A DNA stretch of 64,000 nucleotides, taken from the NCBI GenBank assembly GCA_963675595.2, contig CAXXLZ010000002.1:1664001-1728000 (forward strand), in the 5' to 3' direction. Below the pieces are notes generated by a model. That model was not told the origin of the DNA. It searched no databases and worked only from the letters and a program-made list of their open reading frames with translations. The DNA comes from Thermodesulfobacteriota bacterium. GTDB lineage: Bacteria; Desulfobacterota; Desulfarculia; JACQYL01. The first letter of the stretch is position 1; each line of letters begins with the position of its first letter. The position numbers and the translations under genes are program-made. Positions 28,201 through 48,554 of the stretch are shown in pieces.

Positions 28201-28330
28201 ATTCATTCTTTATCACGCCAGGGTCAATCCGATAGGCAATGCCGGAGGTACTGATCTGCCCCGCAAAGCAGTCCACAACGGTTTCCACCGCGCTGGTCTG
28301 GTAGGGCTGGACTTTAAACTTCAGTTTCAT
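25259..28330 (-). CDS. res: Type III restriction endonuclease Res subunit
   Basis: [35 protein letters not shown]-terminal YNPDW...AETK nuclease. Confidence 0.93.
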
Positions 28331-28342
28331 GCCAAGCCCTCC

Positions 28343-30232: not shown

Positions 30233-30939
30233 GTCTGTCCTTTAGGGTGTGACTGCCGCCCGCTGGCAGACAGCGGACGGGTCAGATTCTCAAGTTCTTG
30301 TTTCAGGTCACGCACCTCAGCGTTGATTGCGACCTTGAGGTTGAATTGTTTCTCTTTCCGGAGCCGAGCCTCACAGCGCTCCAGCTCCCGTTGCTTGAGG
30401 CTAATGAGCTCCATCCGTTCCACCCACGCCTGCAATTCTTCAGCCGGTCGTGCCGGGTACGGCATCAGGGGCATCAGCAAATGGCCATAGAGCGTCTCGA
30501 GGTCGAAAACCATCGGCAGAGGCTTGCGTGGCGTATCGCCGGGAGCCCAGTCGCCATCGAAATATTCACTGATGATCCACTTGCCGGCATCCGCTTCACT
30601 CGGCCGTTTATAGGCGGCGACGGGTTTTACTTTGCCGTCATACCTGAGCTCAAAGAGGATCGGAAAGGGAATGGCCTGGTCGATGCAGCGCAGCACCTCC
30701 GTCTTGAGTTCGCCATCCTTGAGAGAAATGCTGAAAACCTGAATTTCTGGAACAGACGGCGTGCCTTTGATATTGATGGTTTCCGGGGAGAGTTTGTACT
30801 GCCAGACGATCTGCTCCACCTGCCGAACGAAAAGCTCCTTGGTCGCCGTGCCGGGACTCCCGTGCTCATAAATTTTGCTTTTGGGCAGCACGCGGCCGAA
30901 GGCCGCATTCCCGGGATATTCAAAAAGCATTGTCGTCAT
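30229..30939 (-). CDS. DUF4391-family protein
   Basis: GRVLPKSKIY...EQIVWQYKLSPETINI...EIQVF...IDQAIP...EKQFN.KV.IN; ATGA overlaps on both sides. Confidence 0.8.
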   Translation of the reverse strand: MTTMLFEYPGNAAFGRVLPKSKIYEHGSPGTATKELFVRQVEQIVWQYKLSPETINIKGTPSVPEIQVFSISLKDGELKTEVLRCIDQAIPFPILFELRYDGKVKPVAAYKRPSEADAGKWIISEYFDGDWAPGDTPRKPLPMVFDLETLYGHLLMPLMPYPARPAEELQAWVERMELISLKQRELERCEARLRKEKQFNLKVAINAEVRDLKQELENLTRPLSASGRQSHPKGQT

Positions 30940-33900: not shown

Positions 33901-34208
33901 GCGCGCTGGGTGAGTTTATTGCGAAGCTGGATTTCAAATTCGGAGCCGTAGAGGCTGCGTTCCCGGTTGGCCTTAGGGATGAAAAATTCTCGACGTTCTT
34001 TTCTGAGCTTGTCGGTGACTTCGTTGGGCACGAAGGTCGGTGCAGTGAAGATGAATTCCAACGACTCAATCTTTGCGAGCTCGGACTTTAGGGCCTCATA
34101 CGCATAAATCGAAAAGCACGATGCCGCGATCTTCAATTTGGCCTTGGGGTGGATGGAAGCCTTCAGATCGTCGCCCAGCAAAGAATTGATATTGTCGATG
34201 ATCTTCAT
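30936..34208 (-). CDS. SNF2-family helicase associated with type III R-M
   Basis: ADSVGLGKT, IDESH, LSATP, SEGQNLQD, WNPVRIIQRFGRIDRIG. Confidence 0.92.
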   Translation of the reverse strand: MKIIDNINSLLGDDLKASIHPKAKLKIAASCFSIYAYEALKSELAKIESLEFIFTAPTFVPNEVTDKLRKERREFFIPKANRERSLYGSEFEIQLRNKLTQRAIARECAEWMRRKARFRSNKTKSPMQQFACIQGPSLEAAYMPLHGFTAVDLGYQQGDAVSNIVNRVDEMAFTSTYLQLFDQIWSDPEKLEDVTAAICDHIASVYQENSAERIYFLMLYNIFSDFLDDIDEDVLPNDRTGYQDTLVWNKLFNFQRDAAIGIINKLETYNGCILADSVGLGKTFTALAVVKYYELRNRSVLVLCPKKLADNWLNYNCNLTTNIFSRDRFNYDVLCHTDLSRTSGESFGIPLNRVNWGNYDLVVIDESHNFRNNDAVKDRETRYQKLMNQVVRQGVKTKVLMLSATPVNNRFNDLRNQLALAYEGDSENLSKKLRTGRSVEEIFRNAQRIFNQWSKLAPEDRTARAILDSLDFDFFELLDSVTIARSRKHIQTFYDTSDIGQFPERRKPLSFHSPLTGRTDVMNFNEIFEQLSLLKLAVYAPISYILPSRLKKYEDLYDTQVEGGKGKLKQADRERSLQALMTTNLLKRLESSVEAFRLTLKSLHDNHTRTLSKINSFRVAGDAGSVSDWTDSLANLEAEEDDIPVTGDAEIGGKVKINLADMDLPSWEHDLKVDLEVINVLLESMAKVTPEADAKLQHLKALILSKIENPINVGNRKVLVFTAFADTANYLYNNLADTILAREGLHTGRVTGKDTPKSTLKKNYDFHSLLTLFSPRAKEKAQVLPNEPAELDVLIGTDCLSEGQNLQDCDYLVNYDIHWNPVRIIQRFGRIDRIGSINKTIQLVNYWPDISLDEYINLKERVENRMIIADVTATGDDNVLTAKSSEISYRKEQLRRLQEEVIELEDVKTGVSITDLGLNDFRMDLLNYVKTNGDLANAPNGMHAVVPARPAMGLHPGVIFALRNRNHAININQQNRLHPYYLIYISGEGQVIANHTEVKTLLDLVRSSCKGQSEPIQAVCRLFNQQTDEGRNMKAYSDLLGTAIRSMIDVKEEKDLDSLFTGGKTTALLNTISGLDDFELVAFLVVQEEG

Positions 34209-34994: not shown

Positions 34995-36173
34995 TCAGTT
35001 GCTGTTCATCGCATCCTCTTTCATTTTTGAGAGCTTTCCAAGCTCTTTCTCAAGACCCTGAACGCTATTCAGCTCCAGCCGAACCTCCTCGTCGATCTGC
35101 ATTGCTCGCTGCAAGTATGGCCGGGCATCAAGAGGATAGGCGGACCTGCCGATAACTTCGGCTGCTGATCGGAGAGAAGCCTTGAACTCCTCCATCAAAG
35201 CGGCAATCCGTTGGCCGAGGGTTTCGACTGCTTGGTGAAGTCGGAGTGTTTCGCTTTCCAGTTCGATTTCCCTTTGCAGCCTTTCCTTTTCCTTGCCATG
35301 GGCTGTGCTCATCCGGTCTCTGAGTTGGGTGAGATGGTAGGCATCGGATCGTTTGAGGTCAGCGTTGGAGGACTCGAGCTGTTTCATGCGTTTTTCGATT
35401 TGGTGTTCCGAATCCGCGATGGAGACCAATCTGTCCGCGATCTTCTTCCTCGCGAAAGGCGTTACTCCTTCTGTTTCAAGAATCCTGAGGATCGATACGA
35501 TACGTTGGAGGATATCTTCTGAATCTCCCCGGCTTTTCTTGGAGAGCTTTCCCTGTTTCTTCGAGGACTTGATCTCCTGTTCCTCGAATTCGACATCCCG
35601 ATCAATCTGTTGGGTGAATTCAGGGTTTGCTTCAATCTTGGATGCGAGGGACGTGATCGAGGTTTTTGAGAAGATCGTGTGAAAGATCGAATAGAGGAGC
35701 TTTCCGGCAGCGAACACGAAGACGAAGAAAAGCGTGGTCCTGAGCCAGGGCGCCCTTTGGTGGACAAAGTCCATGATGGACGGCGACACTGCCTGGATGG
35801 AGAAATAGATCATAACGAACGCGAGGGACAAAGCCGTCGACGCATGGAAACCCAGGTGCCGGGCGAGTTGATACAGCACCAAGCCGACGATGAAGAGAAG
35901 GAAGAAGATTGCCATCGGGCCAAAGGAAGCGAGACTGAACCTGAGCCGTGATTCAGCGACAGATAATCCTACAGACAAGAGAAGCGATACGGCGACTGTG
36001 AGAAGGCTCCCGCCTTTGCCTGTGAAACGCTTGCCGAGAGTGACCTGGCTGACTCCAAGGAAGAAGAGAAAAGCGAGGACGAAATCGACTCCCACAGCGT
36101 AGCGGTCGTAGATGTACGGGATATCGAATATTGAAAGGAGTTCCCAGATTTCATCGAGTCCGCTGCCGGCCAT
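34995..36173 (-). CDS. Membrane protein with about 5 N-terminal TM segments and a long coiled-coil C-terminus
   Basis: Hydrophobic residues ~25-165, then heptad-rich charged helices. Confidence 0.75.
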   Translation of the reverse strand: MAGSGLDEIWELLSIFDIPYIYDRYAVGVDFVLAFLFFLGVSQVTLGKRFTGKGGSLLTVAVSLLLSVGLSVAESRLRFSLASFGPMAIFFLLFIVGLVLYQLARHLGFHASTALSLAFVMIYFSIQAVSPSIMDFVHQRAPWLRTTLFFVFVFAAGKLLYSIFHTIFSKTSITSLASKIEANPEFTQQIDRDVEFEEQEIKSSKKQGKLSKKSRGDSEDILQRIVSILRILETEGVTPFARKKIADRLVSIADSEHQIEKRMKQLESSNADLKRSDAYHLTQLRDRMSTAHGKEKERLQREIELESETLRLHQAVETLGQRIAALMEEFKASLRSAAEVIGRSAYPLDARPYLQRAMQIDEEVRLELNSVQGLEKELGKLSKMKEDAMNSN

Positions 36174-36271
36174 ACCGGATGATCGGGAAGCGCGGGTATA
36201 AATAGTTTTCGGATGTCGGTGGAGATGACCACCGGGAAAGGGAGATAGGGTCTTCCTATGATCAAGGCCTG

Positions 36272-36916
36272 CTATCGAGGAAACCGTGTCTCTCTTCTAG
36301 CGTTTTTCCAAGCAAGACAGGCGATGGTGAGGATGGCGGAAACGAGGGCCAAGCCTGTAAGCGTTCCTGCGATGGGGCCTATTTTGTCGGTCTTCATGAC
36401 GTTGTCATCGATCAGTTCGCGGTACCAGGCCGGGATTTGGACAGCGTAAGATTTCGATTTCAGTTCGCCGAAGCTGTCTGCGTAGCGGCTTTGGTAGGAG
36501 ATCGCATGCCGTCCGATTGAGAGGTTCGAAGCGCCGGTATCTCTCGGCCTTGATTGAACGGCGTTTACGAATTGTTCGGGGAAGACGAAGTGCGCATGCC
36601 AGAGTCCGTCCCGGTTCGTGAATCCCTGAAAGAATCGGTCGAGCTTGGAGCCTGTGAAATGGGACTTGGTTTTGATGCGGTCGTATTTGAGGACGAAGTC
36701 GTTGACTTCGGACTCGGAGAGGACTTCGACTCCGCCGAAGAGTTCGCTGATCTGGCGGATGCCGTCCCTTAGAGCGTTTGCTGGATTTGTCCCAATTCCT
36801 ACGATTTCAAAGCCGTCAGAAGCAATGCCCTGGCCACCAGCAAAGAAAACAATGATAAGTAGGACGGCGATTGATGAAGACAGGCGCATGGCACTCACCA
36901 GACAAAGACTTATCAT
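36272..36916 (-). CDS. Hypothetical exported protein with signal peptide and C-terminal TM anchor
   Basis: Hydrophobic N-terminus; IAGTLTGLALVSAILTIACLAW followed by a basic tail. Confidence 0.65.
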   Translation of the reverse strand: MISLCLVSAMRLSSSIAVLLIIVFFAGGQGIASDGFEIVGIGTNPANALRDGIRQISELFGGVEVLSESEVNDFVLKYDRIKTKSHFTGSKLDRFFQGFTNRDGLWHAHFVFPEQFVNAVQSRPRDTGASNLSIGRHAISYQSRYADSFGELKSKSYAVQIPAWYRELIDDNVMKTDKIGPIAGTLTGLALVSAILTIACLAWKNARRETRFPR

Positions 36917-36945
36917 ACAATAACTTATAGTTCACCTGACTAATT

Positions 36946-38381
36946 GGTAGTGTCCAGAATATTTCGCACTTTGTAGGAGTCGTCCCTCGCACGGTGGTTT
37001 GAGGAGGCAGCCCCGGGTTCCATACGCCGAGGCTGCCGGTCGATATCAGCAGGCGGCTTTGAGCCTTTCTTCCTGCTCGTTAAGACGATCCATATTCAAG
37101 TACGCCCGGGTGCCCCACCGGGTGCCGACTATGTGACGCAGTCGGGCTGAGACGAGCATGAGGGCGGATTGCCCGTCGGGAAAGCACCCTACCACCCGAG
37201 TCCTGCGACGGATTTCCCGCATGAGGCGTTCCATGGGATTATTGGTACGCAGGCTCCGCCAGTGTTCTCTGGGGAAGGCGTAGTACCTCAACGTTTCTTC
37301 CGCTCCATCCCGCACGAGACGGGCCGCCTTGGGAAGTTTCATGGTTTCGAGTTTTCGTGTCACGGACTCGACCTTTTCCAGGGCCGCTTGACGATCCTCT
37401 TGGGCGTGGATCGCCTTGAGCATCGCCGCCACTTCCTTCACCTTGCCTTTGGGAACCGCCGTGAATACGTTGCGATAGAAATGGACGGCGCACCGTTGCC
37501 AAAGAGCCTCGGGATAGAACTCCGCCAGGGACTCGATCAGGCCGAGGCATTTGTCGCTGATGATGAGTTCAACGCCCCACAGGCCCCGGCGCTTGAGATG
37601 CCGCAGGAAACGGCTCCAGCTTTCCTTGTCTTCCTTGGTCCCTTCCACAACGCCGAGAACTTCTCGAAACCCCTCGACGTTGACCCCGACGGCCACCAGT
37701 ACCGATACGTTGCGGACTTCCCCTCCCCAACTCCGTTTCAGCCACACCCCATCCAAGTACACGTAGGCGTACTTTCCCTCGATCGGCCGATCCAGCCAAT
37801 CCTGTATCCGCACATAGAGCTTCTTGTTGAGTTCACTCACCGTGGACGGACTGACCCGCGTTCCCCAAAGCGCTTCCGTGATGTCTTCCACGCGCCTCAC
37901 CGAAACTCCGGCCAAATACATTTCGATCAGCGCTTCCTCCACGGAAGACTCTCGTCTCCGGTATCGTTCGATAATCGCGGTTTCGAAAGTCAGGGTTCGC
38001 AACTTGGGTACCTTCAGCTCCACTTCTCCCGCCTTGGTATGCAAACTCCGCTTATAATGACCCGCCCTCGTGTCCTTACGGCCTTCCGTTCGTTCGTATC
38101 GATCCGCGCCGCACAACACCGCCGCTTCCGATTCCAGTAGGGCGTTCAGCGTTTCTTCCACCGTCCCCCGAACCACTTCGTCCAAATGCCGATGAAGAGC
38201 GGCTTCCTCAATCTTGATGATTTCTCCCTGTCCCCGGCCTTCACTTCCCGATCCACTCCTGTTATCTTCCATTCCGTAGCCCTCCTTCTCGGTCCTCGGT
38301 TCTAGTTCTTTCTCAAACCAAACCGTACCCGATCGAGGGCTACCCCTTCTACGAAATCTGCGAAATATTCCCTACCTTATC
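36946..38381 (-). mobile_element. IS256-family insertion sequence (1436 bp)
   Basis: Imperfect IRs containing GAATATTTCGCA; 8-bp duplication GACTAATT (36938-36945, 38382-38389). Confidence 0.93.
37046..38272 (-). CDS. IS256-family transposase
   Basis: EMYLAGVSVRRV, YVYLDG, ISD, WQRC.VHFYRN, RTNNPMERLMREIRRR. Confidence 0.95.
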   Translation of the reverse strand: MEDNRSGSGSEGRGQGEIIKIEEAALHRHLDEVVRGTVEETLNALLESEAAVLCGADRYERTEGRKDTRAGHYKRSLHTKAGEVELKVPKLRTLTFETAIIERYRRRESSVEEALIEMYLAGVSVRRVEDITEALWGTRVSPSTVSELNKKLYVRIQDWLDRPIEGKYAYVYLDGVWLKRSWGGEVRNVSVLVAVGVNVEGFREVLGVVEGTKEDKESWSRFLRHLKRRGLWGVELIISDKCLGLIESLAEFYPEALWQRCAVHFYRNVFTAVPKGKVKEVAAMLKAIHAQEDRQAALEKVESVTRKLETMKLPKAARLVRDGAEETLRYYAFPREHWRSLRTNNPMERLMREIRRRTRVVGCFPDGQSALMLVSARLRHIVGTRWGTRAYLNMDRLNEQEERLKAAC

Positions 38382-38579
38382 GACTAATTACAGCTTTTAT
38401 TATTTACAGTTTAAACAGATAGACCCTGGATATCAAGCAAAAGGCTTTGTACAACACCTGTATAGGCGGATATACATGGCGTTGTACTTTGAGTCCGTCG
38501 AGAAATATCGATAAAGCTTCAATGTGGTGTATGGAATTATGAAAATACATACTATTTGATATAGGGGAATCTTCCTAAA

Positions 38580-40205
38580 TCAGTGCTCATTCGATTTTAG
38601 CATATCGTAATTGTCAAAAAACAGCGCAAGTAAGCTCTTGTGGAGGTCGTTACATTTATTGTAATCTAAAGGTTTACTGAGGTCACATTGTAGGTAATTA
38701 TTGCAGAATTCCGTATTTCTGTCGAAATAACTAAAATGCTTCCGCATGACGCAATAAATGTATTTCGAGTACATAAATTGCTGTATGTAGCTCGCCCATC
38801 CCAAAAGCTTTTCCTGAGCTTCATTACGGTTCTTCCAGCCAACTATATCTCCACCTATGAATAGTGGGAGTGGAATCATATCAAGAGGAAAATACCCATT
38901 GATAAATTCGATCATATTCTTATCCTGATATCTCAGGAGCTGGATCGACATATCTATGAAAAAGCCGGTGTCAAAGAAAAAGTTAAATGATATATGAGTA
39001 TTTCTTTTGACTTGTTCCAAGAAGTCAATTGTGGCATCAATCGTTGTGGATACCTGTGGCCATCCGAGAATATCCGGTATATTATTTACAATATTAATTG
39101 TTTTGATTAATATATTATTGCATCTAAATCTATCCAATAATTTATCTATACTTAAAACCATTTGCAGGAAAAATAAGCATGGGCTTCCTATCAAGGCCAT
39201 TTCATGATCATACTGATCAAAACCATAAAATGGATTATCTTGAGTCGGAAATCTCAGTAGAAAAGAAGTTTCTTTTGTTGTGAGTCCACTCTGCATCATG
39301 GCTAAATAAAGAAAAGGCTTGAATAGTTTTTCTGTTATTTTTTCTAAGCTATCCTTGAAGTAATCGAGTCTATGGTTTTTGTCGAACTTACTTATATGCA
39401 AGTACAGCAATCGATTCAATAAATAATATGATGTATTCGAAACCCTAATTCTAAGCCTATCATTAAGCGAAGATATTATGTTGCTGGCTTCTTGTAATTC
39501 GCAATAATTAGCAAAAAGGTCGGCTTGGCTTCCTGCCATGGATGATAGTATCGTCTTTCCAAGAAAATGATTTAGGAATATGTTATTAGCCAGAGAGTGA
39601 GCATATGATTCAAAAACCTGTACAGACCCTATATTAAGTCTTTGTTCTTTCCCATCATAGTCTTGCAATATCACCGTTGGAGTATCATAGCCATACCGGC
39701 CGATTTGATGGTGCTCTATTTCCAAAGACCAGTCGGTGATCCGGTCCAGTTGAAGGTTAACAGGCCAAACATCGGTACCTGAGAGCTTTTCCAAGACTTG
39801 GCCCACTTTGTAAGCGTTCCATAGAATATGGTCGAAGTTGGTGCCGTATTTGTTGCGATAGCCGCGCACATCTTCGGCCGTAAGCGGACTGTGTTCATAA
39901 CCTCTGTATCGGTTCAGGTGGTGCGTAAAGGGCAAAATAATCGGCTGTCCCTCCTCAGCCATGGATCGGACCCTGAGATTCAGCGGTATCAAAGCGTGAA
40001 ATTTGAAAAGGGTAGTGAGTATTCCGTGCGTCGTGCCGAGAGAGTGGATGTAGTGGACGAATTCGTGGAAGAGATTGTGCGTCAGATCTACGTGGTTTTG
40101 TGAAAGCGGAGAATCAACATCCGGATCGTACGAAAGAGGTTTCCCGGTAAAGACGCAGAGGCTGAGTAAGTCGAAAACACTGCGGTTACTTCGAAGGCTC
40201 ATCAC
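38580..40205 (-). CDS. HExxH (gluzincin-like) hypothetical protein, AT-rich
   Basis: LFHEFVHYIH..GT..G, downstream VFESYA; RBS GGAGG; C-terminal Cys residues. Confidence 0.65.
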   Translation of the reverse strand: MMSLRSNRSVFDLLSLCVFTGKPLSYDPDVDSPLSQNHVDLTHNLFHEFVHYIHSLGTTHGILTTLFKFHALIPLNLRVRSMAEEGQPIILPFTHHLNRYRGYEHSPLTAEDVRGYRNKYGTNFDHILWNAYKVGQVLEKLSGTDVWPVNLQLDRITDWSLEIEHHQIGRYGYDTPTVILQDYDGKEQRLNIGSVQVFESYAHSLANNIFLNHFLGKTILSSMAGSQADLFANYCELQEASNIISSLNDRLRIRVSNTSYYLLNRLLYLHISKFDKNHRLDYFKDSLEKITEKLFKPFLYLAMMQSGLTTKETSFLLRFPTQDNPFYGFDQYDHEMALIGSPCLFFLQMVLSIDKLLDRFRCNNILIKTINIVNNIPDILGWPQVSTTIDATIDFLEQVKRNTHISFNFFFDTGFFIDMSIQLLRYQDKNMIEFINGYFPLDMIPLPLFIGGDIVGWKNRNEAQEKLLGWASYIQQFMYSKYIYCVMRKHFSYFDRNTEFCNNYLQCDLSKPLDYNKCNDLHKSLLALFFDNYDMLKSNEH

Positions 40206-40252: not shown

Positions 40253-40834
40253 TTAGGCGATGCCTTTGGATTTTTTCCTGAGGACGTAGATAACCTCCTC
40301 ATTCCCGAGCAGCAATTCGATCTGTAAATCTCCCACTTCCCAGTTGCCCAATTCCGTGAGATCATCTCCTTCCAAATCGGGACTATGAAGGACAGTACCT
40401 CCGTACGAACCTTGGCGGCCGGCTTGGTCAAGCAATTTCGGGATGTCCAGAAGTTTTTCGAAAAGAACCGCTCCGTCTGCGGATTCGATTACAAATCGTG
40501 AGGAGGTAGGGGTCGAAAGCGTTCCGACGAATTCCGTGACGTTGGACAGGTCAATTTCTTCCATTTGAGAAGCGAAGTTAACTACATATACGCTTTCCTT
40601 GTTTATCGAAGCGCTTTCTGGCGTGGCTCCCTGCAATTCTTCTCGCATGCTCGGAATGACCCGTCTAAGCAATTTGTCTATCCCTCTGAAGTTCTCTTCC
40701 TCCTGTTCGATAGTCATAGCAAGCTCAGAGCATTCGTTGCATTCAAGAAGATGGATAGCCATCTCGTCATCCATTTCCGTTCCATCGAGGATGGATTCCA
40801 ATATCTTTTCTCTCATCACATCGTGAGTCGTCAA
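40253..40834 (-). CDS. Zinc-binding anti-sigma factor-like protein (ZAS)
   Basis: HLLECNEC = HxxxCxxC near the N-terminus; TTG start overlaps the sigma stop (TTGA) with GGAGG upstream; no TM segment. Confidence 0.65.
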   Translation of the reverse strand: MTTHDVMREKILESILDGTEMDDEMAIHLLECNECSELAMTIEQEEENFRGIDKLLRRVIPSMREELQGATPESASINKESVYVVNFASQMEEIDLSNVTEFVGTLSTPTSSRFVIESADGAVLFEKLLDIPKLLDQAGRQGSYGGTVLHSPDLEGDDLTELGNWEVGDLQIELLLGNEEVIYVLRKKSKGIA

Positions 40835-41634
40835 AGCAGATCCTCCCTCTTTGGAAGTTGTTTTTTTAATTCCTCGCGAAACATGCTCACTGCGGTTCTC
40901 ACTCGATATATAGTACACTCAAACCGTTCAGCGGTCTCGCTATAAGTACATTCATCGAAATATATGCTTCTTACAATATCAGCATAATTTCTTGGCATAA
41001 TTTCTAGGACTTTTTCAATACATTTCCGTACGATAGAATCGCGGATATTTCTCTCTATATCATCGTAAATATTATGTTCTTCCGGCAAACCATATCTGTC
41101 ATAAGATGTAGTCTTAAGCTGACCAAGTAAATTATCAATATATGAGTCAATTTCAGATAGTTTATTAAAAAGCTTAGAAAGCGCCTTTTGAAGTTTGGTC
41201 GATATGATTTTATCTTTAGCAATATTTGAAGTCATGTATTTAGTTGTAAGCTTACTGAGTCTCGTTATCCTTTTTTTCAGCTTTGATCTCCTTTTGAATA
41301 TTCTATCTAGTTCAGGCAAATGAACTTCCTTTTTTAGCATATCCACTCTGGAGCTTCTCAAGTGCATGAATATGAATCTTGCGATCGGAGTATCACCTAT
41401 GTATGATATGTAAGTTATTACCCTTATAAATGTCTCCTGGATTATGTCTTTTCTTAAATTTTCGAAGTAAACGTGTCTTGTCCCATCAGGATTATGGGAC
41501 TTCCTGTCATACATTCCATACTTATTTCTGAGGATATAATCGCATTTCCTGTAATAAGTGCTGTAAAGCTCCCCGAAAGCTAACTCATTCCCGGAATTCA
41601 ACGTTTCTACGAAATCCCTTTTGTTGTCAATCAT
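40831..41634 (-). CDS. ECF-type sigma-70 factor with long basic linker
   Basis: GNELAFGELY...DIIQETFIR (region 2); LEIMP...IVRSIYFDECTYSETAERFECTIYRVR (region 4). Confidence 0.75.
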   Translation of the reverse strand: MIDNKRDFVETLNSGNELAFGELYSTYYRKCDYILRNKYGMYDRKSHNPDGTRHVYFENLRKDIIQETFIRVITYISYIGDTPIARFIFMHLRSSRVDMLKKEVHLPELDRIFKRRSKLKKRITRLSKLTTKYMTSNIAKDKIISTKLQKALSKLFNKLSEIDSYIDNLLGQLKTTSYDRYGLPEEHNIYDDIERNIRDSIVRKCIEKVLEIMPRNYADIVRSIYFDECTYSETAERFECTIYRVRTAVSMFREELKKQLPKREDLL

Positions 41635-41824
41635 GGCGTCGCCTTCGCTTTCATGATTCTGCTCCACGAAATGACACTCAGATTTTTGAGCACGGAGATT
41701 GTTTCTCTCAGATAGAGAAGGGGAAGACCACGTTGCGGGCATTCCCGGTGAAGACCTCGAATGGCCCTCTGCGGTTAGTTATAGCTCGCATCTTTGATTC
41801 GCTGCAATTGGCAAAGGAGACCAC

Positions 41825-42136
41825 ATGGCAAATTTCAGCATTTTCGGCAAAGGCGATCAGGCAGGTCATGTGCAGACCACTCTGAAATCACAGGAACTAC
41901 CTGATGGAACAATCATCTACTTTATCGAGGAATATGTCAAGTTTATTAGCCCTGATGGCGTTTTGCACGAGCAGACGACGATTCAGTTCATCTGCAGTTC
42001 CTGCGGCTCAGGACCTGTGATCGTCGGTCAGACCGGTGCTCTGGTGGACGGCAGACCCGTCTGCGCGAAGTGTTCAGGTTTAGTGAGCGGGACGCTCCGA
42101 CAGGTCAGGTCGTTCTTCCTGAAGCCGGCTGAATAG
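41825..42136 (+). CDS. Small zinc-finger-like protein
   Basis: RBS AAGGAG; CSSC...CAKC. Confidence 0.65.
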   Translation: MANFSIFGKGDQAGHVQTTLKSQELPDGTIIYFIEEYVKFISPDGVLHEQTTIQFICSSCGSGPVIVGQTGALVDGRPVCAKCSGLVSGTLRQVRSFFLKPAE

Positions 42137-42147
42137 GGTTGTTTCTT

Positions 42148-42186
42148 AGGGTCCGGCATAGCAAAAGTCTCCGATTGCCGGGCCCT
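42148..42186 (+). other. Inverted repeat / stem-loop
   Basis: AGGGTCCGGCA-N17-TGCCGGGCCCT between the first two genes of the module. Confidence 0.45.
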
Positions 42187-42242
42187 GGAGTAAATGCAGC
42201 GGCTTGCGGTTACCTAAACCATCCCTGGTTGGAGGAAAGAAC

Positions 42243-42464
42243 ATGAGATTCAGAGTGCTGGATAACAAGCCTGAGGAAGACTTCGACCCTCTTGAGGAAT
42301 TGACCGAGGCTGAACTCGTGAAGCTTCTGAGCGATGCGGAGAAGCCTTTTGAAGAACACTGGCCCGACGGAACCATTGTCAGGGAAATCCAAGACGACAT
42401 CGAATACCCGGATTCCTTCGTCAATGAGATCAGAGAGGAGATCAAGAAGAAAGCGAGGAAATGA
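42243..42464 (+). CDS. Small acidic hypothetical protein
   Basis: RBS GGAGG plus ATG 42243. Confidence 0.6.
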   Translation: MRFRVLDNKPEEDFDPLEELTEAELVKLLSDAEKPFEEHWPDGTIVREIQDDIEYPDSFVNEIREEIKKKARK

Positions 42465-42479
42465 TTTGATTGAAAGGCA

Positions 42480-44600
42480 ATGCTTCACTTGGAGGTGGGC
42501 GTGGGCTCTGATGAAATCAAACAGGTGCTAGAACTGCTGGACACCGATCTGAAGAATGACCCGTTCTTCGCGAGTCATGTCAGGACTGCAAGGGTCACCA
42601 ATAACTGGGATCATGTTCTGGAATATGTCCGAAAGAACGATCGTTTGATCGGTCAGGTAAGGAACGAGAAAGCGGTTCAGCACCGGTTCAAGGGCCTTTG
42701 CCCCTTCTATCCCTTCCCGGAATCCCAGGATCTTTTGGAGTTCGGCGGAGACCTCAAGTTCGGGGTGGTCAACAACAGCGGCGACTTTTTCTCGATCAAC
42801 CCGGATGACCTTGCCATGCATCTCATGCTGCTCGGAAGAACCGGCGCTGGAAAAAGCTGGTTCATTCTTCATGCCATCGAGCAGCTCTGCAGCATGACCG
42901 GTTTCAATATTGTGCTTCCGGACAGAAAGCAATACTACAGGCGAGCTGTTTCTAAAATCTCCAGACTCAAAGTCCTGCCTTTCGAAAGACTCCTCTTCAA
43001 TCCTCTTCAGGTCCCGGATTGGATGCATCCGAGAGATTTCTGTTTTGTTTGGGCCAAGGCGTTCGTCGCGGACAATCTCCTGGGGCCGCCGACTGAAGGT
43101 CTTCTAAGGCAGGTCATCATGCGGCTTTTTACCGAAAACGGCGTTCTATCTGGAAGCAAGTATTACCCCACGATGAGTGAGCTCTACAAACACCTGGAAA
43201 AGATTCGGAGTTCTCCGAGGAATCCGTTGACCTTCAGGTACCGGGAGTTCTTGGAGTCTGCCTGCAATCGGCTGGAGCCGTATACCTATTTCTTCCAGTT
43301 CAATGAACGGCTCGGAGTCGGCCATGAAATCTTCGAGAACGACCACGTGGTGCTCGAACTTCCTGCGCATAAGCTGTCGAGCCAAATGCACAATTTCATC
43401 ATCAGCCTGATCGTGAACACGCTGTTCGCAAAACGCCAGCAATTCCAGCTCAGGGGAAATCAGCTTCGAACTCTCTTCATCGTGGACGAGGCGTCAAGCT
43501 ATATGAGCGCCAACCGGGAGCATACGGACCTTCAATGGATCGAGCCGGGTGTGAACGACATCGCGCGCATGGGAAGGGAATTCGGAATCGGTCTATGGAT
43601 GTGCAGTCAGGAATCGAAGAGCTTCAATTACGTCTTCAGGGCGAACTGTTTCACCAAAGTCGCGTTTCCGCTCACTGAAGGCCAGGATGTGAAGGATATC
43701 CAGGACAGTTTCGGGCTTTCGAACGAACAAAGGGATTATTTGTACGAACTGCCGAGCAACAGAGTCGCTGTCGTGCGGTACGCAAGATACCCAAAACCCT
43801 TCATCCTGGAGGTGCCTCTTCTGTCAGGCTACGACGACATTCCGGGTGACCGTGATCTTGAAGATGCGATGTCGGATTGGCTTTCCGATGTTGTGCCGAA
43901 AATCAGTCTGGTGCCTGATGTGAGTACTAAGGAAGACACAACAGGTCAGACCGAGGCACCGGGACCAGAGGACCGTGAATGGTCGATCTTTTCATCGGGT
44001 CAGGCTTTGCCCAAGAAAGAGTTGAACGCTCTCCTGATCATCAAAGCGCTTCAGAAAAAGCCCTTCCTGAAGAAGAAGGAACTCTTCGATGAAATCGGCA
44101 TCGGAACAGAAGACGCTGAATCCGCGAGAAGCCGTTTAATCGAACTCGGATACATCGAATCGCACAAAATCGGTCTGAAACCCGGTGCACCGGGTGAGTA
44201 CTCGGAATTGAAATCTCCGGCGTTCGAGAAATTCGGCGGAAGTCCTCCTCCGGGAAGAGGCGGGTTCAGGCATAAGTGCCTCTGCAACTTTGCCCAGGAG
44301 TGTCTTGAAGCTGAAGGATTCAAGACCAGGCTTGAAGGCTCCTTGAAAGGCATGCATGGGGCATTCGATATTCTGGCGGTGAAGGGCAAGGAGAAGATGG
44401 GTTACGAGATCACACTATCGTTCGATAATTTACTCGACAATGTCAGGGACGGCCTTGCATCCGAAGCAACGAAATTGGTGGTGGTCTGCCAAAACAGAGA
44501 GGAATTGGAGCGGGCGAAGGAAATCGTTTCCAAGGAGTATGGTGAAGAAGGTCGATTGGAGTTCAGAACCATCTTCGATTTCTCGAGGAAATCCAAATAA
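42480..44600 (+). CDS. HerA/FtsK/VirB4-superfamily ATPase with C-terminal wHTH and PD-(D/E)xK-like domain
   Basis: GRTGAGKS, FNPL, FIVDEA, RMGREFGIG..SQ; C-terminal AFDILAVK...GYEITLS. Confidence 0.75.
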   Translation: MLHLEVGVGSDEIKQVLELLDTDLKNDPFFASHVRTARVTNNWDHVLEYVRKNDRLIGQVRNEKAVQHRFKGLCPFYPFPESQDLLEFGGDLKFGVVNNSGDFFSINPDDLAMHLMLLGRTGAGKSWFILHAIEQLCSMTGFNIVLPDRKQYYRRAVSKISRLKVLPFERLLFNPLQVPDWMHPRDFCFVWAKAFVADNLLGPPTEGLLRQVIMRLFTENGVLSGSKYYPTMSELYKHLEKIRSSPRNPLTFRYREFLESACNRLEPYTYFFQFNERLGVGHEIFENDHVVLELPAHKLSSQMHNFIISLIVNTLFAKRQQFQLRGNQLRTLFIVDEASSYMSANREHTDLQWIEPGVNDIARMGREFGIGLWMCSQESKSFNYVFRANCFTKVAFPLTEGQDVKDIQDSFGLSNEQRDYLYELPSNRVAVVRYARYPKPFILEVPLLSGYDDIPGDRDLEDAMSDWLSDVVPKISLVPDVSTKEDTTGQTEAPGPEDREWSIFSSGQALPKKELNALLIIKALQKKPFLKKKELFDEIGIGTEDAESARSRLIELGYIESHKIGLKPGAPGEYSELKSPAFEKFGGSPPPGRGGFRHKCLCNFAQECLEAEGFKTRLEGSLKGMHGAFDILAVKGKEKMGYEITLSFDNLLDNVRDGLASEATKLVVVCQNREELERAKEIVSKEYGEEGRLEFRTIFDFSRKSK

Positions 44601-44711
44601 GGAGTGATCGATTCCGACACACTTCAATGTTCGAGCAGATATTTCTTTTCAGGAGGAGGCGAAGCTGACGAAGTCGCCTGACGCAAAAACTTCTGAATGA
44701 AGGAGCAAGGT

Positions 44712-44927
44712 ATGGGACGTGAGTTTGATCCATCGGACGTTATCGAGATTTCGAATGACTTCATCGAAGAGGAGCTTGACCTCACTCTCGATGACTTAAT
44801 CGACGAGCAAATCCATTTACTCGAAGAGAAAGAGAAGGCTTCAGAGAAGATGAGGGAGATCATTCGTGAGATTGAGGAGCTACCCCAGGATCATTACTGG
44901 GACGATGTCACGAATCGGAAATCATAA
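44712..44927 (+). CDS. Small acidic hypothetical protein
   Basis: RBS AAGGAG plus ATG. Confidence 0.55.
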   Translation: MGREFDPSDVIEISNDFIEEELDLTLDDLIDEQIHLLEEKEKASEKMREIIREIEELPQDHYWDDVTNRKS

Positions 44928-44942
44928 TGAAAGGAGGGGGAA

Positions 44943-45185
44943 ATGCAGGTTAATTGGAGACACGTGCTTTTCGTTTTCCTTCTTCTCCTTCTTGCGTTCT
45001 ATCTCCCAGACCTTCTTCGAACAGTGGCTGAAGTAGTTCGGGAGTTTTCGGATGCGCTGAGTGCTTCGTGGCATGCAGGGTACAGAGGCCGATCTCATAG
45101 TGGCAGTGAAATTGAATCCATAGCCAAACTTGCAGTTATCGGAATCATCATCATAGGTATCATACGATTACTGAAACAGAAATAG
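44943..45185 (+). CDS. Small 2-TM membrane protein
   Basis: RBS AAGGAGG; two hydrophobic segments. Confidence 0.7.
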   Translation: MQVNWRHVLFVFLLLLLAFYLPDLLRTVAEVVREFSDALSASWHAGYRGRSHSGSEIESIAKLAVIGIIIIGIIRLLKQK

Positions 45186-45202
45186 CGATAATAGGAGTCG
45201 TC

Positions 45203-46747
45203 ATGAAAAATAATAAGACATCCCGGCAGTTAAAATTGTTGGAAGTGTGTTCTGGCTTCTACATTTTCTCTTTAATTTGCGTTGTTGGAGAGTGTTGCAC
45301 AGGTATGATCAGTCAATATTCTGACCATTTTTGGAGATGCACCGTAACTTTGTGTCAAGCCCCCAGTTTTTGGTCCAGGAGTTATGAGAGTTTTATCATG
45401 ACTCGCGGTTTTCCATCCCCGGCCCTTGGGGCCACGGCGAAGCCGAGCTGAGCGAGGCGGAGTCGAGGCCCCAAGGGCTCGCCGCGAACTGGGCCGGGGT
45501 CATGTAATTCAATGCACTGTGCGGTCTTTCCTCGTTATAGACTTTCCGCCATTTGGCGGCCAGAGTCTGCGCTTCCTTGATGTTGTTGAAAATTTCCATG
45601 TTCAAGAATTCATCCCGAAAACGGCTGTTGAAACTTTCCACGTACCCGTTCTGCCAAGGGGCTCCCGGCTCGACGAAAAAGGTTCCCACTCCCAGGTCTT
45701 TCAGCCAATTTCTCACCTTTTGGGCTATAAATTCGGGACCGTTATCCGATCGAATGCCCGTTGGAACTCCCCGCTCGCCCATCAATCGGCTCAGCTCGTT
45801 CAAAACGTCTTCACCCGTAATGGAGCGGTTGATCCTCAGGGCCAGGTTTTCCCGAGTAAACTCGTCGACAATGGCCAAGCACTTGAACTGACGGCCGTCG
45901 ACCAAGCGGTCATGAATGAAATCCAACGTCCAGACATCATTTGCAAAAGCCGCCTTACGCTTGTTGCACGCATTGGCATCAACTCCCAGGAAGCGTTTCT
46001 TCTTGGCTTTTCGAGGTACCTTGAATCCTTCCTCTTTCCAAAGTCTATGAATTCGCTTGTAGTTTACCGCCCACCCCGCATCACGCAGCAGCCGAGTGAT
46101 CCTACGGCATCCAAAACGGGGATGTTCTCCAACCAACCGGTGAAGAGCCTTGATCAGTTCCACCTCATCGTCCCGTTCCTTCGGCTCATAACGTTGGGTG
46201 GATCGGTGTTGACCGGCTACGCGGCAGGCCCGACGCTCTGAAGCGGCATGTTCACTTCGAACATAATCAACCGCTTTCCTACGACGCGCCGGGCTTAGAA
46301 GTTTCCCTCCGCAAGATCCTTCAGCATTGCCTTGTCCAACATCAGATCGGCGACCAGCTTTTTTAAGCGTGCATTTTCCTTTTCCAGTTCTTTTAGCCGT
46401 TTGGCCTCCTCAGCCTTCATCCCCCCATACTGGTTTCGCCACCGGTGGTACGTCGCCTCGCTCACCTCCAGCGATTGGCAAACCTGCGCTATCGTCTGCC
46501 CTGCCGTCAGACGACGGTCCGCGTCTTCAAGTTTCCGGATGATTTGCTCCGCGCTGTGTCTCTTTCTCTTGGCCATGCAAAAAGTCTCCTTCCGTTCTTT
46601 GGGCATTCAGACTCTCATTATACATGGACCAATTATCGGGGGGCATTCCATTTGGTCATGTGCGTCTTCGTATTCGTCGGATCATTGTACATCTTATCGA
46701 AGTATATCCAGATTGTTCGAAGAGAAGAAGAGCAGTCGAAATCCTGA
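45203..46747 (+). pseudogene. Small 2-TM membrane protein (80 aa) split by an IS3-family element
   Basis: ...RCTVTL joins VMCVFVFVGSLYIL...QSKS-stop in frame after removing 45353-46650 plus one TTTG. Confidence 0.75.
45353..46650 (-). mobile_element. IS3-family (IS407-group-like) insertion sequence, 1298 bp; orfA 46295-46576, orfB ending 45396
   Basis: TG...CA ends with imperfect IR, 4-bp duplication TTTG, orfA ending EGNF with GGGAAAC slip site, DDE core WTLDF...SDNGPEF...NGYVESFN. Confidence 0.93.
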
Positions 46748-46764
46748 AGGGCATTGCTTGACTT

Positions 46765-47151
46765 ATGACCGAGAGTCCTCTAATCCAAACCCCTGAGGAA
46801 GTCGCCAGGTTTCTGAAAAAAAGCCGGAGTTGGGTCTACCGGCATTGGAAGGAACTTGGCGGTCGGAAGCTTGGGGGTTCTCTTCTTTTTCCGTCAAAGG
46901 AGGACCTCTATGAGCGTATTTTTCGTTCAAAACAAAGGCTGGAGGTACAATTTCTACCTCAACAAAAACCGCTACGCAAAAGGATTCTACGCGACGAAGA
47001 ACGAAGCGAGGATAGCGGAATCGAAAAGAAAGGAGGCGATACAAAAGGGACTGCCGGATCCCGAAGAAGAACGAAGGATCGAGATCCGGGAGGAACCGAC
47101 AGTGGCGGCGGAGACGACCCCAACAGGCATGGCCTTCTTGGACCTCGTTAA
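46765..47151 (+). CDS. Excisionase-like HTH protein overlapping the integrase
   Basis: TPEEVARFLKKSRSWVY...LGG.K.GG...F. Confidence 0.7.
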   Translation: MTESPLIQTPEEVARFLKKSRSWVYRHWKELGGRKLGGSLLFPSKEDLYERIFRSKQRLEVQFLPQQKPLRKRILRDEERSEDSGIEKKGGDTKGTAGSRRRTKDRDPGGTDSGGGDDPNRHGLLGPR

Positions 47152-48070
47152 CCTGAGGCTGGATCATGTGCGGGCTTATAACTCACAGAAGCATTACCTG
47201 GACACGTACTACATCTGCCGGAGGTGGATCAAAGTCTGGGGCAAGCTGATGTGCGAAGATATCAACCGTGACTTGGTACAATCCTATGTTTTTGTTCGTG
47301 CAAAGAAGTCGAACCAGACAGCGAACAAAGACCTCCGGTATCTCAGAGCTCTCTTCAACCACGGCATCAAGAAAGACTGGATCCCGGAAAACCCAACCAA
47401 GGGGATCGATTTCCTTCCAGTCGAAAGAAAGCTCCGGTACGTGCCGCCCAAAGAAGATGTTCTTAAGGTCATCCTGGCTGCGGGGCCTGAGGAACAGGAT
47501 TACCTGTACTGCATCAAAGAAACCATGGGAAGAGTGGGAGAGATCAACCGACTCACCTGGGAGGATGTGGATTTCACGAATCGCTGCGTAGCGCTTTACA
47601 CCAGGAAGAAGAGGGGCGGGAATCTCACTCCCCGGCGGGTTCCGATGACCAACAAGCTCTTCGAAGTGCTTTCCAGGAGATATGCGGCAAGGGACAAGTC
47701 ACAACCCTGGGTTTTCTGGCATACCTGTTGGAGCAGTAAGACCGGTGAGAAGATCGTAGGACCTTACGCAGACCGGAAACGAATGATGCGCACTCTTTGC
47801 AGAAAAGCCGGAGTGAAATACTTCAGGTTTCATGCTCTGAGACATTTCGGAGCATCGGTCCTGGACGGTGCGAATGTGAACATTGGAAGCATCCAGCGTA
47901 TCTTGGGGCATGAACGAAGGACTACAACCGAGATCTACCTGCACAGCATCGGGACCGCGGAAAGGGCCGCGATGGAGGTCTTCGAAGCTGAGACAAACGG
48001 TGAGATTCAAAAAGTGACACACCAAGTGACACACCTGGAGGAGAAGCCCAATAAAAAGAGGGCTAAGTAG
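46910..48070 (+). CDS. int: Tyrosine recombinase/integrase
   Basis: RBS AAGGAGG plus ATG 46910; GRVGEI..L.W.D, HALRH, LGH....TT.IY. Confidence 0.93.
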   Translation: MSVFFVQNKGWRYNFYLNKNRYAKGFYATKNEARIAESKRKEAIQKGLPDPEEERRIEIREEPTVAAETTPTGMAFLDLVNLRLDHVRAYNSQKHYLDTYYICRRWIKVWGKLMCEDINRDLVQSYVFVRAKKSNQTANKDLRYLRALFNHGIKKDWIPENPTKGIDFLPVERKLRYVPPKEDVLKVILAAGPEEQDYLYCIKETMGRVGEINRLTWEDVDFTNRCVALYTRKKRGGNLTPRRVPMTNKLFEVLSRRYAARDKSQPWVFWHTCWSSKTGEKIVGPYADRKRMMRTLCRKAGVKYFRFHALRHFGASVLDGANVNIGSIQRILGHERRTTTEIYLHSIGTAERAAMEVFEAETNGEIQKVTHQVTHLEEKPNKKRAK

Positions 48071-48092: not shown

Positions 48093-48168
48093 TGGCGCGC
48101 CCGGCATGATTCGAACATGCGACCTACGGATTCGTAGTCCGGCGCTCTATCCACTGAGCTACGGGCGC
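48093..48168 (-). tRNA. tRNA-Arg(ACG)
   Basis: GCGCCCGTAGCTCAGTGGATAGAGCGCCGGACTACGAATCCGTAGGTCGCATGTTCGAATCATGCCGGGCGCGCCA, 76 nt cloverleaf with encoded CCA. Confidence 0.97.
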
Positions 48169-48206: not shown

Positions 48207-48330
48207 GCAGAACTTTGACGCCGGGGCAACTTTCGCCCGGCGGTTCAATCAAGGCGCGAAACGCCGACCGGGGGAGAGGCGGGGGCACGGGCCGTTCTCC
48301 CTGCCCCGCATGCCAACCTTTTGTGAGTAG

Positions 48331-48478
48331 TCAGGGGGGTATCCGAAGGAACCCTTTTTGAAAGAAGGGCTCTCCCGGGCTCCTTCCCATACTTTGGGTA
48401 TTTTAACAGGTTGGACGGCACATGCCGCTCGCTTTGCCAATCCCGTACGCGATTCGTAAAAGCGCAACGGGGGTCCGG
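48331..48478 (+). repeat. Intergenic repeat, copy A
   Basis: GGGGTATCCGA.GGAACCCTTTTT...TTGGACGG.ACAT.C.GCTCG...AACGGGGGTCCG, also at 51107-51226. Confidence 0.7.
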
Positions 48479-48554
48479 GGGGCCATGGGTCCCCCGGCGG
48501 GGGTTGCGGGGGACGACTTTCCCGAAAGCCCTTCCCACAAACGCCGGCCCTCTT

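Follow-up and report, generated by a model that had tools for sequence, protein, structure and literature searches.

An apparently undescribed family of tRNA-integrating elements in Thermodesulfobacteriota, possibly pairing excision genes with a membrane-tethered DNA pump-nuclease

To our knowledge, integrative elements that do without a type IV secretion system (T4SS) are known from two narrow cases only, actinomycete integrative and conjugative elements (AICEs) and ICETh1 of Thermus. AICEs of the pSAM2/pSG5 type carry int and xis, integrate at tRNA genes, and move double-stranded DNA (dsDNA) with small membrane proteins and TraB, an FtsK-like motor with a winged-helix recognition domain. ICETh1 of Thermus thermophilus is a 14.9-kb tRNA-integrated element in which TdtA and NurA are required for T4SS-free DNA donation, termed 'transjugation'; TdtA is described there as hexameric and membrane-associated, and the element lacks both a T4SS and a relaxase and apparently does not replicate once excised (PMC5365140). 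Here we describe E1, an element copy situated at a tRNA-Arg(ACG) gene in a 64,000-nucleotide window (contig CAXXLZ010000002.1, positions 1,664,001 to 1,728,000, assembly GCA_963675595.2) of a Thermodesulfobacteriota genome of three contigs and 6.8 Mb that is 98% complete; window coordinates are used throughout. We propose, at about even odds (a probability of roughly 0.5), that E1 belongs to a family of mobile elements, so far undescribed, which integrate at tRNA genes of Thermodesulfobacteriota and in which the excision genes share one operon with a membrane-tethered DNA pump-nuclease.

The backbone of the family comprises one apparent operon, encoding a Zn-ribbon-like protein, an ATPase with a winged helix and a PD-(D/E)xK-fold nuclease domain, an 80-aa protein with two transmembrane segments (2-TM), an excisionase (xis) and an integrase (int). 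It is completed by a divergent pair of extracytoplasmic function (ECF) sigma and anti-sigma-like genes and by a distal five-TM coiled-coil membrane protein, with variable conflict genes lying between. The proposal is built on the domain folds, the synteny, the presence of copies at different tRNA genes, and the lack of any detectable relaxase, VirB4, capsid or Rep. Three further copies (E2, E3 and E4) lie in the same genome, and 13 loci from other genomes were inspected (L010–L013 and L033–L041). The operon of E1 and its tRNA border contain the following features, where ORF denotes an open reading frame, IS an insertion sequence, HTH helix-turn-helix and wHTH its winged form:

41825-42136, plus strand: Zn-ribbon-like protein, 103 aa, CxxC...CxxC; first gene of the operon, with homologues in E2, L010 and L011
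42204-42464, plus strand: acidic protein, 86 aa, of which 22 are D or E; 35% identity to two acidic ORFs of E2
42480-44600, plus strand: ATPase-wHTH-nuclease, 706 aa, from profile, structure-prediction and fold searches
44697-44927, plus strand: acidic ORF, 76 aa, of which 25 are D or E; peculiar to E1
44943-45185, plus strand: 2-TM protein, 80 aa, two hydrophobic segments by hydropathy; the invariable neighbour downstream of the ATPase-nuclease
45203-45451, plus strand: hybrid ORF, 82 aa, one hydrophobic segment; element DNA for the first 50 codons, then the end of the IS3-family IS
45353-46650, minus strand: IS3-family IS (orfA 46295-46606, orfB 45396-46163); rve/rve_3/HTH_21 (Pfam) and transpos_IS3
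46765-47151, plus strand: xis, excisionase-type HTH protein; HTH_17 at 24.4 bits, under the cut-off of 27
46856-48070, plus strand: tyrosine integrase int; Phage_integrase E 2.8e-22, phrog_1 E 2.1e-49
48093-48168, minus strand: tRNA-Arg(ACG); ARAGORN, and Rfam tRNA at 68.9 bits

The 706-aa protein is central to the proposal. Its residues ~100-450 form a HerA/VirB4-type P-loop ATPase, and a MarR-like winged helix and a PD-(D/E)xK-fold domain come after it (~500-706); an earlier note on this DNA, made from its letters without database searches, had already supposed a wHTH and a PD-(D/E)xK-like tail. The assignment of the ATPase is supported by a match to DUF87, the HerA central domain of Pfam, at 27.3 bits (E 4.7e-6; cut-off 23.2) and by HerA itself (PDB 4d2i, E 2.3e-9), and the motifs GRTGAGKS (Walker A) and FIVDEA (Walker B) are invariant in the family alignment; these Walker motifs within a HerA/VirB4-like core place the protein in the FtsK-HerA superfamily. 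An AlphaFold model built from a 12-sequence alignment (mean predicted local distance difference test score, pLDDT, 77.4) retrieves HerA 4d2i (E 2.8e-15), the C-terminal part of DndH (7es4) and VirB4 (4ag5) in Foldseek, with E values from 3e-15 to 5e-11. There is no FtsK_SpoIIIE (PF01580) match in the Pfam scan and, by hydropathy, no TM segment in the protein itself. Models for antiphage HerA, CedB/CedD, VirB4, DndH and mad8 match partially and weakly, far under threshold (for example NCBIfam CedB at 5.6e-7 and CedD at 1.8e-6).

The tail is recognised at the level of fold, from structure prediction and fold searches. We modelled it on its free-standing 264-aa homologue in E2 (pLDDT 83.6), whose residue numbers are used here. 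Residues 57-140 match MarR-type winged helices with Z of about 10, and residues 147-261 match AF1548 (1y88) with Z 9.9 over 103 residues and a Foldseek probability of 1.0, the next fold matches being NucS (2vld), Can2/Card1-type proteins, Bax1 and VC1899 (1xmx), with probabilities of 0.97-1.0 for 1y88, 2vld and 1xmx. The C-terminal domain thus has the restriction-endonuclease-like fold that defines the PD-(D/E)xK superfamily, and H150, E171, D182 and E198 are invariant in all 11 sequences. Among 165 collected family sequences 120 are fused, 22 are ATPase-only, 6 tail-only and 17 partial. In E2 and L013, where the protein is split, the tail gene lies directly downstream of the ATPase gene. Split forms are spread over a quick tree with at least 17 changes, part of which are probably artefacts of contig ends. 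Judged by these sequences, the ATPase and nuclease belong together, as fused or adjacent genes.

The remaining operon genes are small. In the Zn-ribbon protein, for which an ESM Atlas search gave no usable match, the second CxxC is invariant, and only the second cysteine (C57) of the first pair is invariant, the first being missing in E2. The 86-aa acidic protein has no homologue that we could find in elements more distant than E2, and the 76-aa ORF has none in E2, L010 or L011, where the 2-TM gene directly follows the ATPase or nuclease gene. The earlier note listed Zn-finger, acidic, ATPase, 2-TM, xis and int genes as one co-directional run; the ORF list and family scans bear out the Zn-finger gene, both acidic ORFs, the ATPase, xis and int at those positions, but the run is interrupted by the minus-strand IS3-family IS, which is inserted between the 2-TM gene and xis and flanked by a TTTG target duplication. 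This IS has 24 further full-length copies in the genome, 21 of them at no less than 98.8% identity and three at ~86%. Two 80-aa 2-TM genes had also been reported. That at 44943-45185 holds and is found in E2, E3, E4, L010, L011 and L012 as well, but the ORF at 45203-45451, which has a single hydrophobic segment, reads into the IS and yielded no counterpart when related elements were searched, is probably not a gene.

The start of int is likely the ATG at 46907, so placed that the tail of xis and the N-terminal domain of int overlap by 245 nt (46907-47151) in different frames; the HxxR and Tyr motifs are visible in the translation of int, and the positional homologue of xis in L011 matches HTH_17 at 56 bits. 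The tRNA-Arg(ACG) gene begins 22 nt past int with its 3' end toward int, and forms the proximal border of E1. It is the only Rfam match at gathering score in 18000-49000; Plastid-ycf2, on the strand opposite the tRNA, reaches 45.4 bits against 65.7. A promoter and terminator scan gave counts no different from those of shuffled sequence. Just past the tRNA, at 48321-48523, lies a ~200-nt repeat that recurs dozens of times (78-91% identity) across all three contigs and looks like a miniature inverted-repeat transposable element or an element of the repetitive extragenic palindromic type.

E2 is a second full copy, located at tRNA-Val, with the gene order of E1 and with ATPase (440 aa) and wHTH-nuclease (264 aa) encoded by adjacent separate genes. 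Protein identities between E1 and E2 are 32% for the Zn-ribbon protein, 43% for the ATPase, 36% for the wHTH-nuclease tail, 49% for the 2-TM protein, 95% for Xis and 77% for Int. E3 lies at tRNA-Phe and E4 at tRNA-Arg(TCG). Whole-genome BLAST shows that the stretch 35071-36833 is 91-93% identical to the far ends of E2, E3 and E4, in which the distal 392-aa protein has copies of 88-90% identity; the adjoining 214-aa protein is 84% identical over 207 residues in E2, or 83% by a second comparison, and represented only by its C-terminal half in E3 and E4. Both of these copies carry a deletion from just past the 2-TM gene to the middle of the 214-aa gene, and the int of E3 is split by an IS; a reading of the two as minimal autonomous forms was rejected, since they are deletion derivatives. 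The overlap of xis and int (46907-47151) is the best-conserved part between copies, with 92-96% nucleotide identity among E1, E2 and E3 against 43% protein identity for the ATPase, and because of this mosaic conservation we suggest that co-resident copies may have recombined. E1 itself may be inactive or crippled, because the IS3-family IS parts xis and int from the rest of the operon; it also has a second IS, of the IS256 family, in its cargo slot. E2 looks intact. E3 and E4 also have a distal flank in common (C2:4235600-4236500 and C1:1406500-1408000) with a KaiC-like ATPase gene, full-length at E4 and truncated at E3, which is either carried by the element or part of a larger segment duplicated between replicons. 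A fifth, isolated fragment of the 392-aa gene lies at C2:2171289-2171672 (61% identity over 132 residues).

A word-indexed search for the ATPase family yielded only 19 proteins, and a full profile search 9516 proteins at E ≤ 1e-3 and 625 protein clusters at E ≤ 1e-30, nearly all of them unannotated; of 401 genomes sampled from the phylum, nine, the host among them, have a match at 1e-30. The linkage of ATPase homologues to integrases, on which the earlier note had staked its inference, is found at 8 of the 13 loci (L010, L011, L013, L033, L036, L037, L038 and L039), where an integrase lies within ~8 kb downstream. At seven of these a tRNA gene lies directly past the integrase: Phe in L010, Arg in L011, Pro in L013, Ala in L033, Arg-TCT in L037, Ala in L038 and Glu in L039, with none at L036. 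We also checked the gene order in 14 short metagenome contigs of ~40% identity. Downstream of the ATPase gene, the 2-TM gene is present in all 11 contigs that extend 100 nt or more past the ATPase gene; upstream, the Zn-ribbon gene is present in all four that reach back 500 nt or more; and in all five that continue for 300 nt or more past the 2-TM gene, this gene is followed by xis or int. Across Thermodesulfobacteriota metagenome-assembled genomes (MAGs) and metagenome contigs, the order Zn-ribbon, ATPase-nuclease, 2-TM, xis, int, tRNA recurs at 30-45% identity. The gaps between successive genes from ATPase to tRNA in L011 (60, 27, -44 and 14 nt) would fit co-transcription of the excision genes with the pump. 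At the distal end, homologues of the 392-aa protein (28-30% identity) are present in L010, L011 and L012, and the slots between hold differing genes: TPR-CHAT in E2, NACHT-HEAT in L010, NACHT-TPR in L012, an M48-domain protein in L011 and an HExxH protein in E1.

Some of these loci have genes of other kinds. A SNF2/ResIII helicase of 740-760 aa, 38-43% identical between MAGs and without a homologue in the host genome, lies on the distal side in L011 (53-2332), L010 (12-893), L033 (1295-3514) and L037 (15846-17078). L033 and L037 have extra genes for a tubulin/FtsZ-like GTPase, a kinase, VWA and PP2C; the tubulin/FtsZ-like gene (L033:12995-14203, L037:6981-7388) and a Cds6_C NTF2-like gene (L033:8216-8839, L037:11603-12109) lie near the ATPase-nuclease pair, and hint at a plasmid-like segregation stage in this branch. 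L036 has a sub-threshold FtsK_SpoIIIE match (2.3e-4).

How does this family compare with the systems already described? Like ICETh1, E1 is a small element at the 3' end of a tRNA gene with a tyrosine-recombinase-type life style, in which a gene for an ATPase of the HerA/FtsK superfamily lies beside or is joined to a nuclease gene (PMC5365140). Unlike it, the family has a wHTH-PD-(D/E)xK domain, usually fused, where ICETh1 has NurA and a type IIG restriction enzyme, and no counterpart was found in E1-E4 to the 47-bp att repeats given there (PMC5365140). The obligatory 2-TM partner, the Zn-ribbon protein and the ECF sigma pair are specific to the present family and, comparing the two by description, we see no sequence relationship beyond the superfamily. 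With AICEs E1 has in common int, xis and integration at a tRNA gene, and also a single motor that comes with a winged helix and a small membrane protein. In contrast to theirs, its ATPase scores as HerA/DUF87 and not as FtsK_SpoIIIE, lacks a TM segment of its own and comes with a nuclease domain, of which TraB has none; no Rep, Pif/NUDIX or Spd genes are seen, and the hosts are diderm Thermodesulfobacteriota. The pT26-2 family of archaeal integrated plasmids likewise combines tRNA integration with a core of membrane proteins and a HerA/VirB4-like ATPase, with no transfer function assigned, beside a variable region, and this core is retained even in copies that lack replication genes (PMC6972569). 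By description, pT26-2 elements differ in being archaeal, 17-38 kb in size, with seven core genes and an SSV-type integrase, and without a described nuclease fusion (PMC6972569). Similarly, in Ced of Sulfolobales the HerA/VirB4-like ATPase CedB is described as working alongside CedA1/A2, which are small 2-TM proteins, and a further membrane protein that is polytopic (PMC11868833). Ced differs in being chromosomal, in importing DNA, and in having neither a nuclease nor a winged-helix tail. The present family belongs to none of the ICETh1, AICE, pT26-2 and Ced types: its ATPase is not FtsK_SpoIIIE, its nuclease is not NurA, it has no Rep, and no long att repeats were found. A full-text literature search, with subscription journals outside its coverage, found no description of the element family.

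That distant relatives keep this gene order may point to a mode of DNA movement or protection not yet described. As the variable genes sit elsewhere in the element, the ATPase is backbone and not cargo, and a DNA-processing and export device coupled to excision fits better than cargo does because the constant backbone includes xis and int, the conflict genes occupy variable slots, and a winged helix lies between motor and nuclease. Excision, membrane docking, DNA export and regulation are what we infer from this arrangement. A plausible sequence of events is that the sigma/anti-sigma switch would activate the operon, Xis and Int would excise the element from the 3' end of the tRNA gene, the winged helix would locate a site on the element, and the nuclease domain would nick or cut at that site, whereupon a hexameric ATPase would pump the DNA out of the donor cytoplasm. 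In this model the ATPase would be anchored to the inner membrane via the 2-TM protein, and perhaps also via the cytoplasmic coiled coil of the 392-aa protein, and export would proceed without a T4SS or relaxase, in a manner comparable to TdtA and NurA of ICETh1 or TraB of AICEs. We would go further only tentatively, and regard as doubtful the stronger claim that this is a self-transmissible element of diderm bacteria that, lacking relaxase, T4SS and capsid, would send its excised dsDNA out of the cell by means of a single terminase-like polypeptide (site-recognising winged helix, PD-(D/E)xK cutter and HerA-type pump) docked on the 2-TM protein and switched on together with xis and int by the ECF sigma/anti-sigma pair.

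Several observations weigh against a pump-nuclease coupled to excision. The combination of a HerA-type ATPase with a nuclease is also a standard defence architecture, and the ATPase has partial PADLOC matches to mad8 (3.4e-17) and HerA (4.3e-16). Nuclease activity of the PD-(D/E)xK-fold domain is uncertain because the canonical Lys is not conserved, the position two residues after E198 being T or E. E3 and E4 persist without the ATPase block. At 5 of the 13 loci no integrase is seen: L035, L040 and L041, whose contigs do not exceed 11.7 kb, L034, and L012, which has an integrase fragment upstream only. The distant L033, L036, L037 and L039 interleave other genes (tubulin-like GTPase, ThiF, kinases) and have no detectable homologue of the 392-aa protein. 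Pfam, NCBIfam and PHROGs scans of the element ORFs found no replication family, no cis site was identified at which the winged helix might bind, and the element shows no evident outer-membrane component for its diderm host. Contigs of four public runs, all from one study, contain no excision joint with adequate support; five candidate joints have shorter-side anchors of 26-39 nt (29 nt or less in four of the five) at depths of up to 11.4, and are unreliable. Finally, no att direct repeat of at least 10 nt was found in any of the four copies, using 14-, 12- and 10-mers, a 32-nt tRNA pattern with up to three mismatches, and 8-mers at the expected ends, and for this reason the distal end is unproven. 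The best att candidate is an 8-nt A-run in E2; a match of 5-7 nt at the tRNA CCA end (TACCAAA in E2) was rejected as too short. In an empty-site comparison with the nearest relative (G001), homology ends 6 nt past tRNA-Val and the DNA downstream is unlike the distal flank of E2; the tRNA-Arg flank is not syntenic in six relatives.

The strongest competitor is a defence or exclusion module directed against phages or plasmids, in which a HerA ring would feed foreign DNA to the nuclease, with the 2-TM protein as an anchor or abortive effector and the island as a vehicle beside STAND-type cargo; we consider this possible, if unlikely. HerA-nuclease pairs are established defence architectures, and the fold matches include the solved complexes of HerA with DUF4297 and of SIR2 with HerA. 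The MADS system has an ATPase-nuclease module, MAD7-MAD8 (PMC13662399), and in all three systems a HerA-fold ATPase is combined with a nuclease-fold effector, as it is here. NCBIfam HerA_antiphage also matches the ATPase (E 5.9e-11), the element lies in a 48-kb region rich in defence-type genes, with STAND, CHAT and M48 genes as the family's cargo, and the survival of E3 and E4 without the ATPase module is equally in keeping with a defence role. However, the model matches are all partial, confined to the P-loop core and far under curated cut-offs (41.6 bits against 800 for HerA_antiphage), and the nuclease is of another family with an intervening winged helix. The lack of a full-length match at threshold to known HerA defence models lowers the case for membership in those systems and not that for a defence function. 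The Pfam scan reveals no Sir2, DUF4297 or other known effector domain. Furthermore, the module is constant backbone whereas recognisable defence genes occupy the variable slots, and the block it forms with the 2-TM gene is constant in position and orientation, immediately before xis and int, with gaps of 13-60 nt across 30-45% identity, so that constitutive defence expression would drive excision.

An alternative that we think improbable is a capsid-less or membrane-enveloped, virus-like element (pleolipovirus- or plasmavirus-like, or vesicle-borne), in which the ATPase-nuclease would load DNA into vesicles with the 2-TM, 214-aa and 392-aa proteins. Its appeal is that FtsK/HerA-type ATPases package DNA in membrane-containing viruses (PMC4158269), that residues 352-418 of the ATPase match phrog_2666 'terminase large subunit' partially (E 4.7e-10), that by hydropathy three backbone proteins are membrane proteins, and that a motor with DNA-binding and nuclease parts would follow the logic of a terminase. 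Against this, no PHROG match to a capsid, portal or spike is found in two sets of 13 and 38 proteins from E1 and related elements, and no relative turned up when 2.9 million IMG/VR contigs and 50,697 phage records were searched; two weak matches to 'terminase small subunit' (E 0.0017 and 0.0034) both fall on orfA of the IS3-family IS. Nor is there a replication module. The 392-aa protein has five TM segments, and its homologues in L010 and L011 begin with what resembles a signal peptide; from this we predict that the coiled-coil half lies in the cytoplasm. Least probable of all is a non-autonomous island, an integrative mobilizable element or satellite relying on a helper conjugative element or phage and using the ATPase-nuclease for maintenance, dimer resolution or addiction, for although no complete transfer apparatus or Rep gene is recognisable, a NikA-like gene lies near the ATPase in the distant relative L039 and E3 and E4 are deletion derivatives, the close family has no oriT-type or relaxase gene and the host genome has no match to VirB4 (PF03135), MobA-type relaxase (PF03432) or TrwC relaxase (PF08751), the three families searched genome-wide, so that no resident conjugative helper is evident.

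The pump-nuclease proposal is in agreement with the absence, already suspected in the earlier note, of a canonical conjugation or phage module: Pfam scanning of ORFs picked across 1-48 kb of the window found no relaxase or T4SS family, as the PHROGs comparison found no capsid, and plasmid records give just five weak generic HerA matches. The note's view of an unclassified integrative element is upheld to this extent, and by the linkage to integrases; the mobility role is our interpretation, with defence as its main competitor, and the gene list and the borders had to be corrected. Its expectation of more machinery beyond the left edge at 41825 was right, as the backbone continues at least to 34995. 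E1 is thus at least 13 kb and not 6 kb long, and may span ~20700-48092. The features distal to the operon are:

40831-41742, minus strand: ECF-type sigma-like regulator, 303 aa; TIGR02937 at 51.3 bits against 42.9, Sigma70_r4_2 E 1.1e-5
40253-40918, minus strand: 221-aa protein, HxxxCxxC motif; matches L011:6395-7102 weakly (2e-4)
38580-40205, minus strand: 541-aa cargo protein with an HExxH motif, in a stretch of 39-43% G+C; no family match
36944-38383, minus strand: IS256-family IS (transposase 37046-38272); Transposase_mut E 6.7e-114
36272-36916, minus strand: 214-aa protein; hydropathy gives a signal/anchor segment at its N-terminus and a TM anchor at its C-terminus; no family match
34995-36173, minus strand: 392-aa backbone protein; hydropathy gives five hydrophobic segments in the N-terminal part, and the C-terminal half is charged and coiled-coil-like
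21089-34208, minus strand: possible inserted cargo, ~14 kb, by Pfam; assigned to E1 solely from the position of the terminal block
20700-20905, minus strand: non-coding terminal block, ~230 nt, containing the palindrome TTCTCGACGAGAA

The sigma-like gene is divergent from the ATPase operon, and its L011 homologue is in the same position. The HxxxCxxC motif of the 221-aa protein is presumably a zinc anti-sigma signature, and the corresponding neighbour in L012 carries zf-HC2; the protein would be an anti-sigma-like partner of the sigma factor. The 392-aa protein has no Pfam match above threshold (DUF4094 at E 0.0093, 16.8 bits against 24.5), no PHROG match, and only unnamed clusters in the ESM Atlas. 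The IS256-family IS has a 97.6% identical copy elsewhere in the genome. The 541-aa HExxH gene occupies the slot of the STAND, CHAT and M48 genes of related elements. Another orphan, of 518 aa (19067-20623), has with it in common an HE[FL]xHY motif near the N-terminus and the lack of a family match; kinship of the two was considered and rejected, as their similarity is not significant (E 0.25).

Nucleotide homology between E1 and E2 stops at 35071. The terminal block occurs in exactly four copies in the genome, one per element, and lies ~220-500 nt past the 392-aa gene in E2, E3 and E4 and 14 kb away from it in E1; a motif within it, TCGACGAGAA, is not enriched outside the block. It is possible that the block at 20700-20905 marks the distal end of E1; alternatively, it is a remnant of an older neighbour. 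The intervening ~14 kb encodes an AAA_13 ATPase, an IS, a 310-aa ORF, a ResIII/RE_endonuc helicase-nuclease, an N6_N4 methylase, DUF4391 and a SNF2 helicase. The whole of 1-34208, to the left of the conserved backbone, is dense in conflict genes, and an rve-type IS (331-aa and 163-aa ORFs) occurs in it twice, at 921-2404 and 22814-24297. Its other features are:

2459-3187: UDG-superfamily protein
3259-4269 and 6559-7566: two WYL/WCX regulators
4361-5350: ARPP-1 protein
5685-6506: GGACT protein
7719-10001: double AAA ATPase, 760 aa
15395-18052: helicase, 885 aa
21089-22786: AAA_13 ATPase
25259-34208: SNF2, DUF4391, N6_N4 methylase and ResIII-RE_endonuc cluster

If the module serves defence, it would represent a new type of HerA-nuclease defence with a membrane component. 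If instead the family is self-transmissible, it would offer a third conjugation-like route besides T4SS conjugation and actinomycete TraB transfer and, as a third, sequence-unrelated T4SS-free family, in anaerobic Thermodesulfobacteriota, it would make 'one motor plus few membrane proteins' a recurrent solution to DNA export, distinguished here by a fused motor, reader and nuclease and by a strictly co-inherited 2-TM partner. With about eight backbone genes it would also be a simple and genetically tractable system. The 625 clusters at E ≤ 1e-30 indicate that the family is not rare in metagenomes, and it is invisible to ICE, phage and defence finders. With their STAND, CHAT and restriction-type cargo, the elements act as carriers of immune genes within the Thermodesulfobacteriota, a phylum whose mobile elements are poorly charted.

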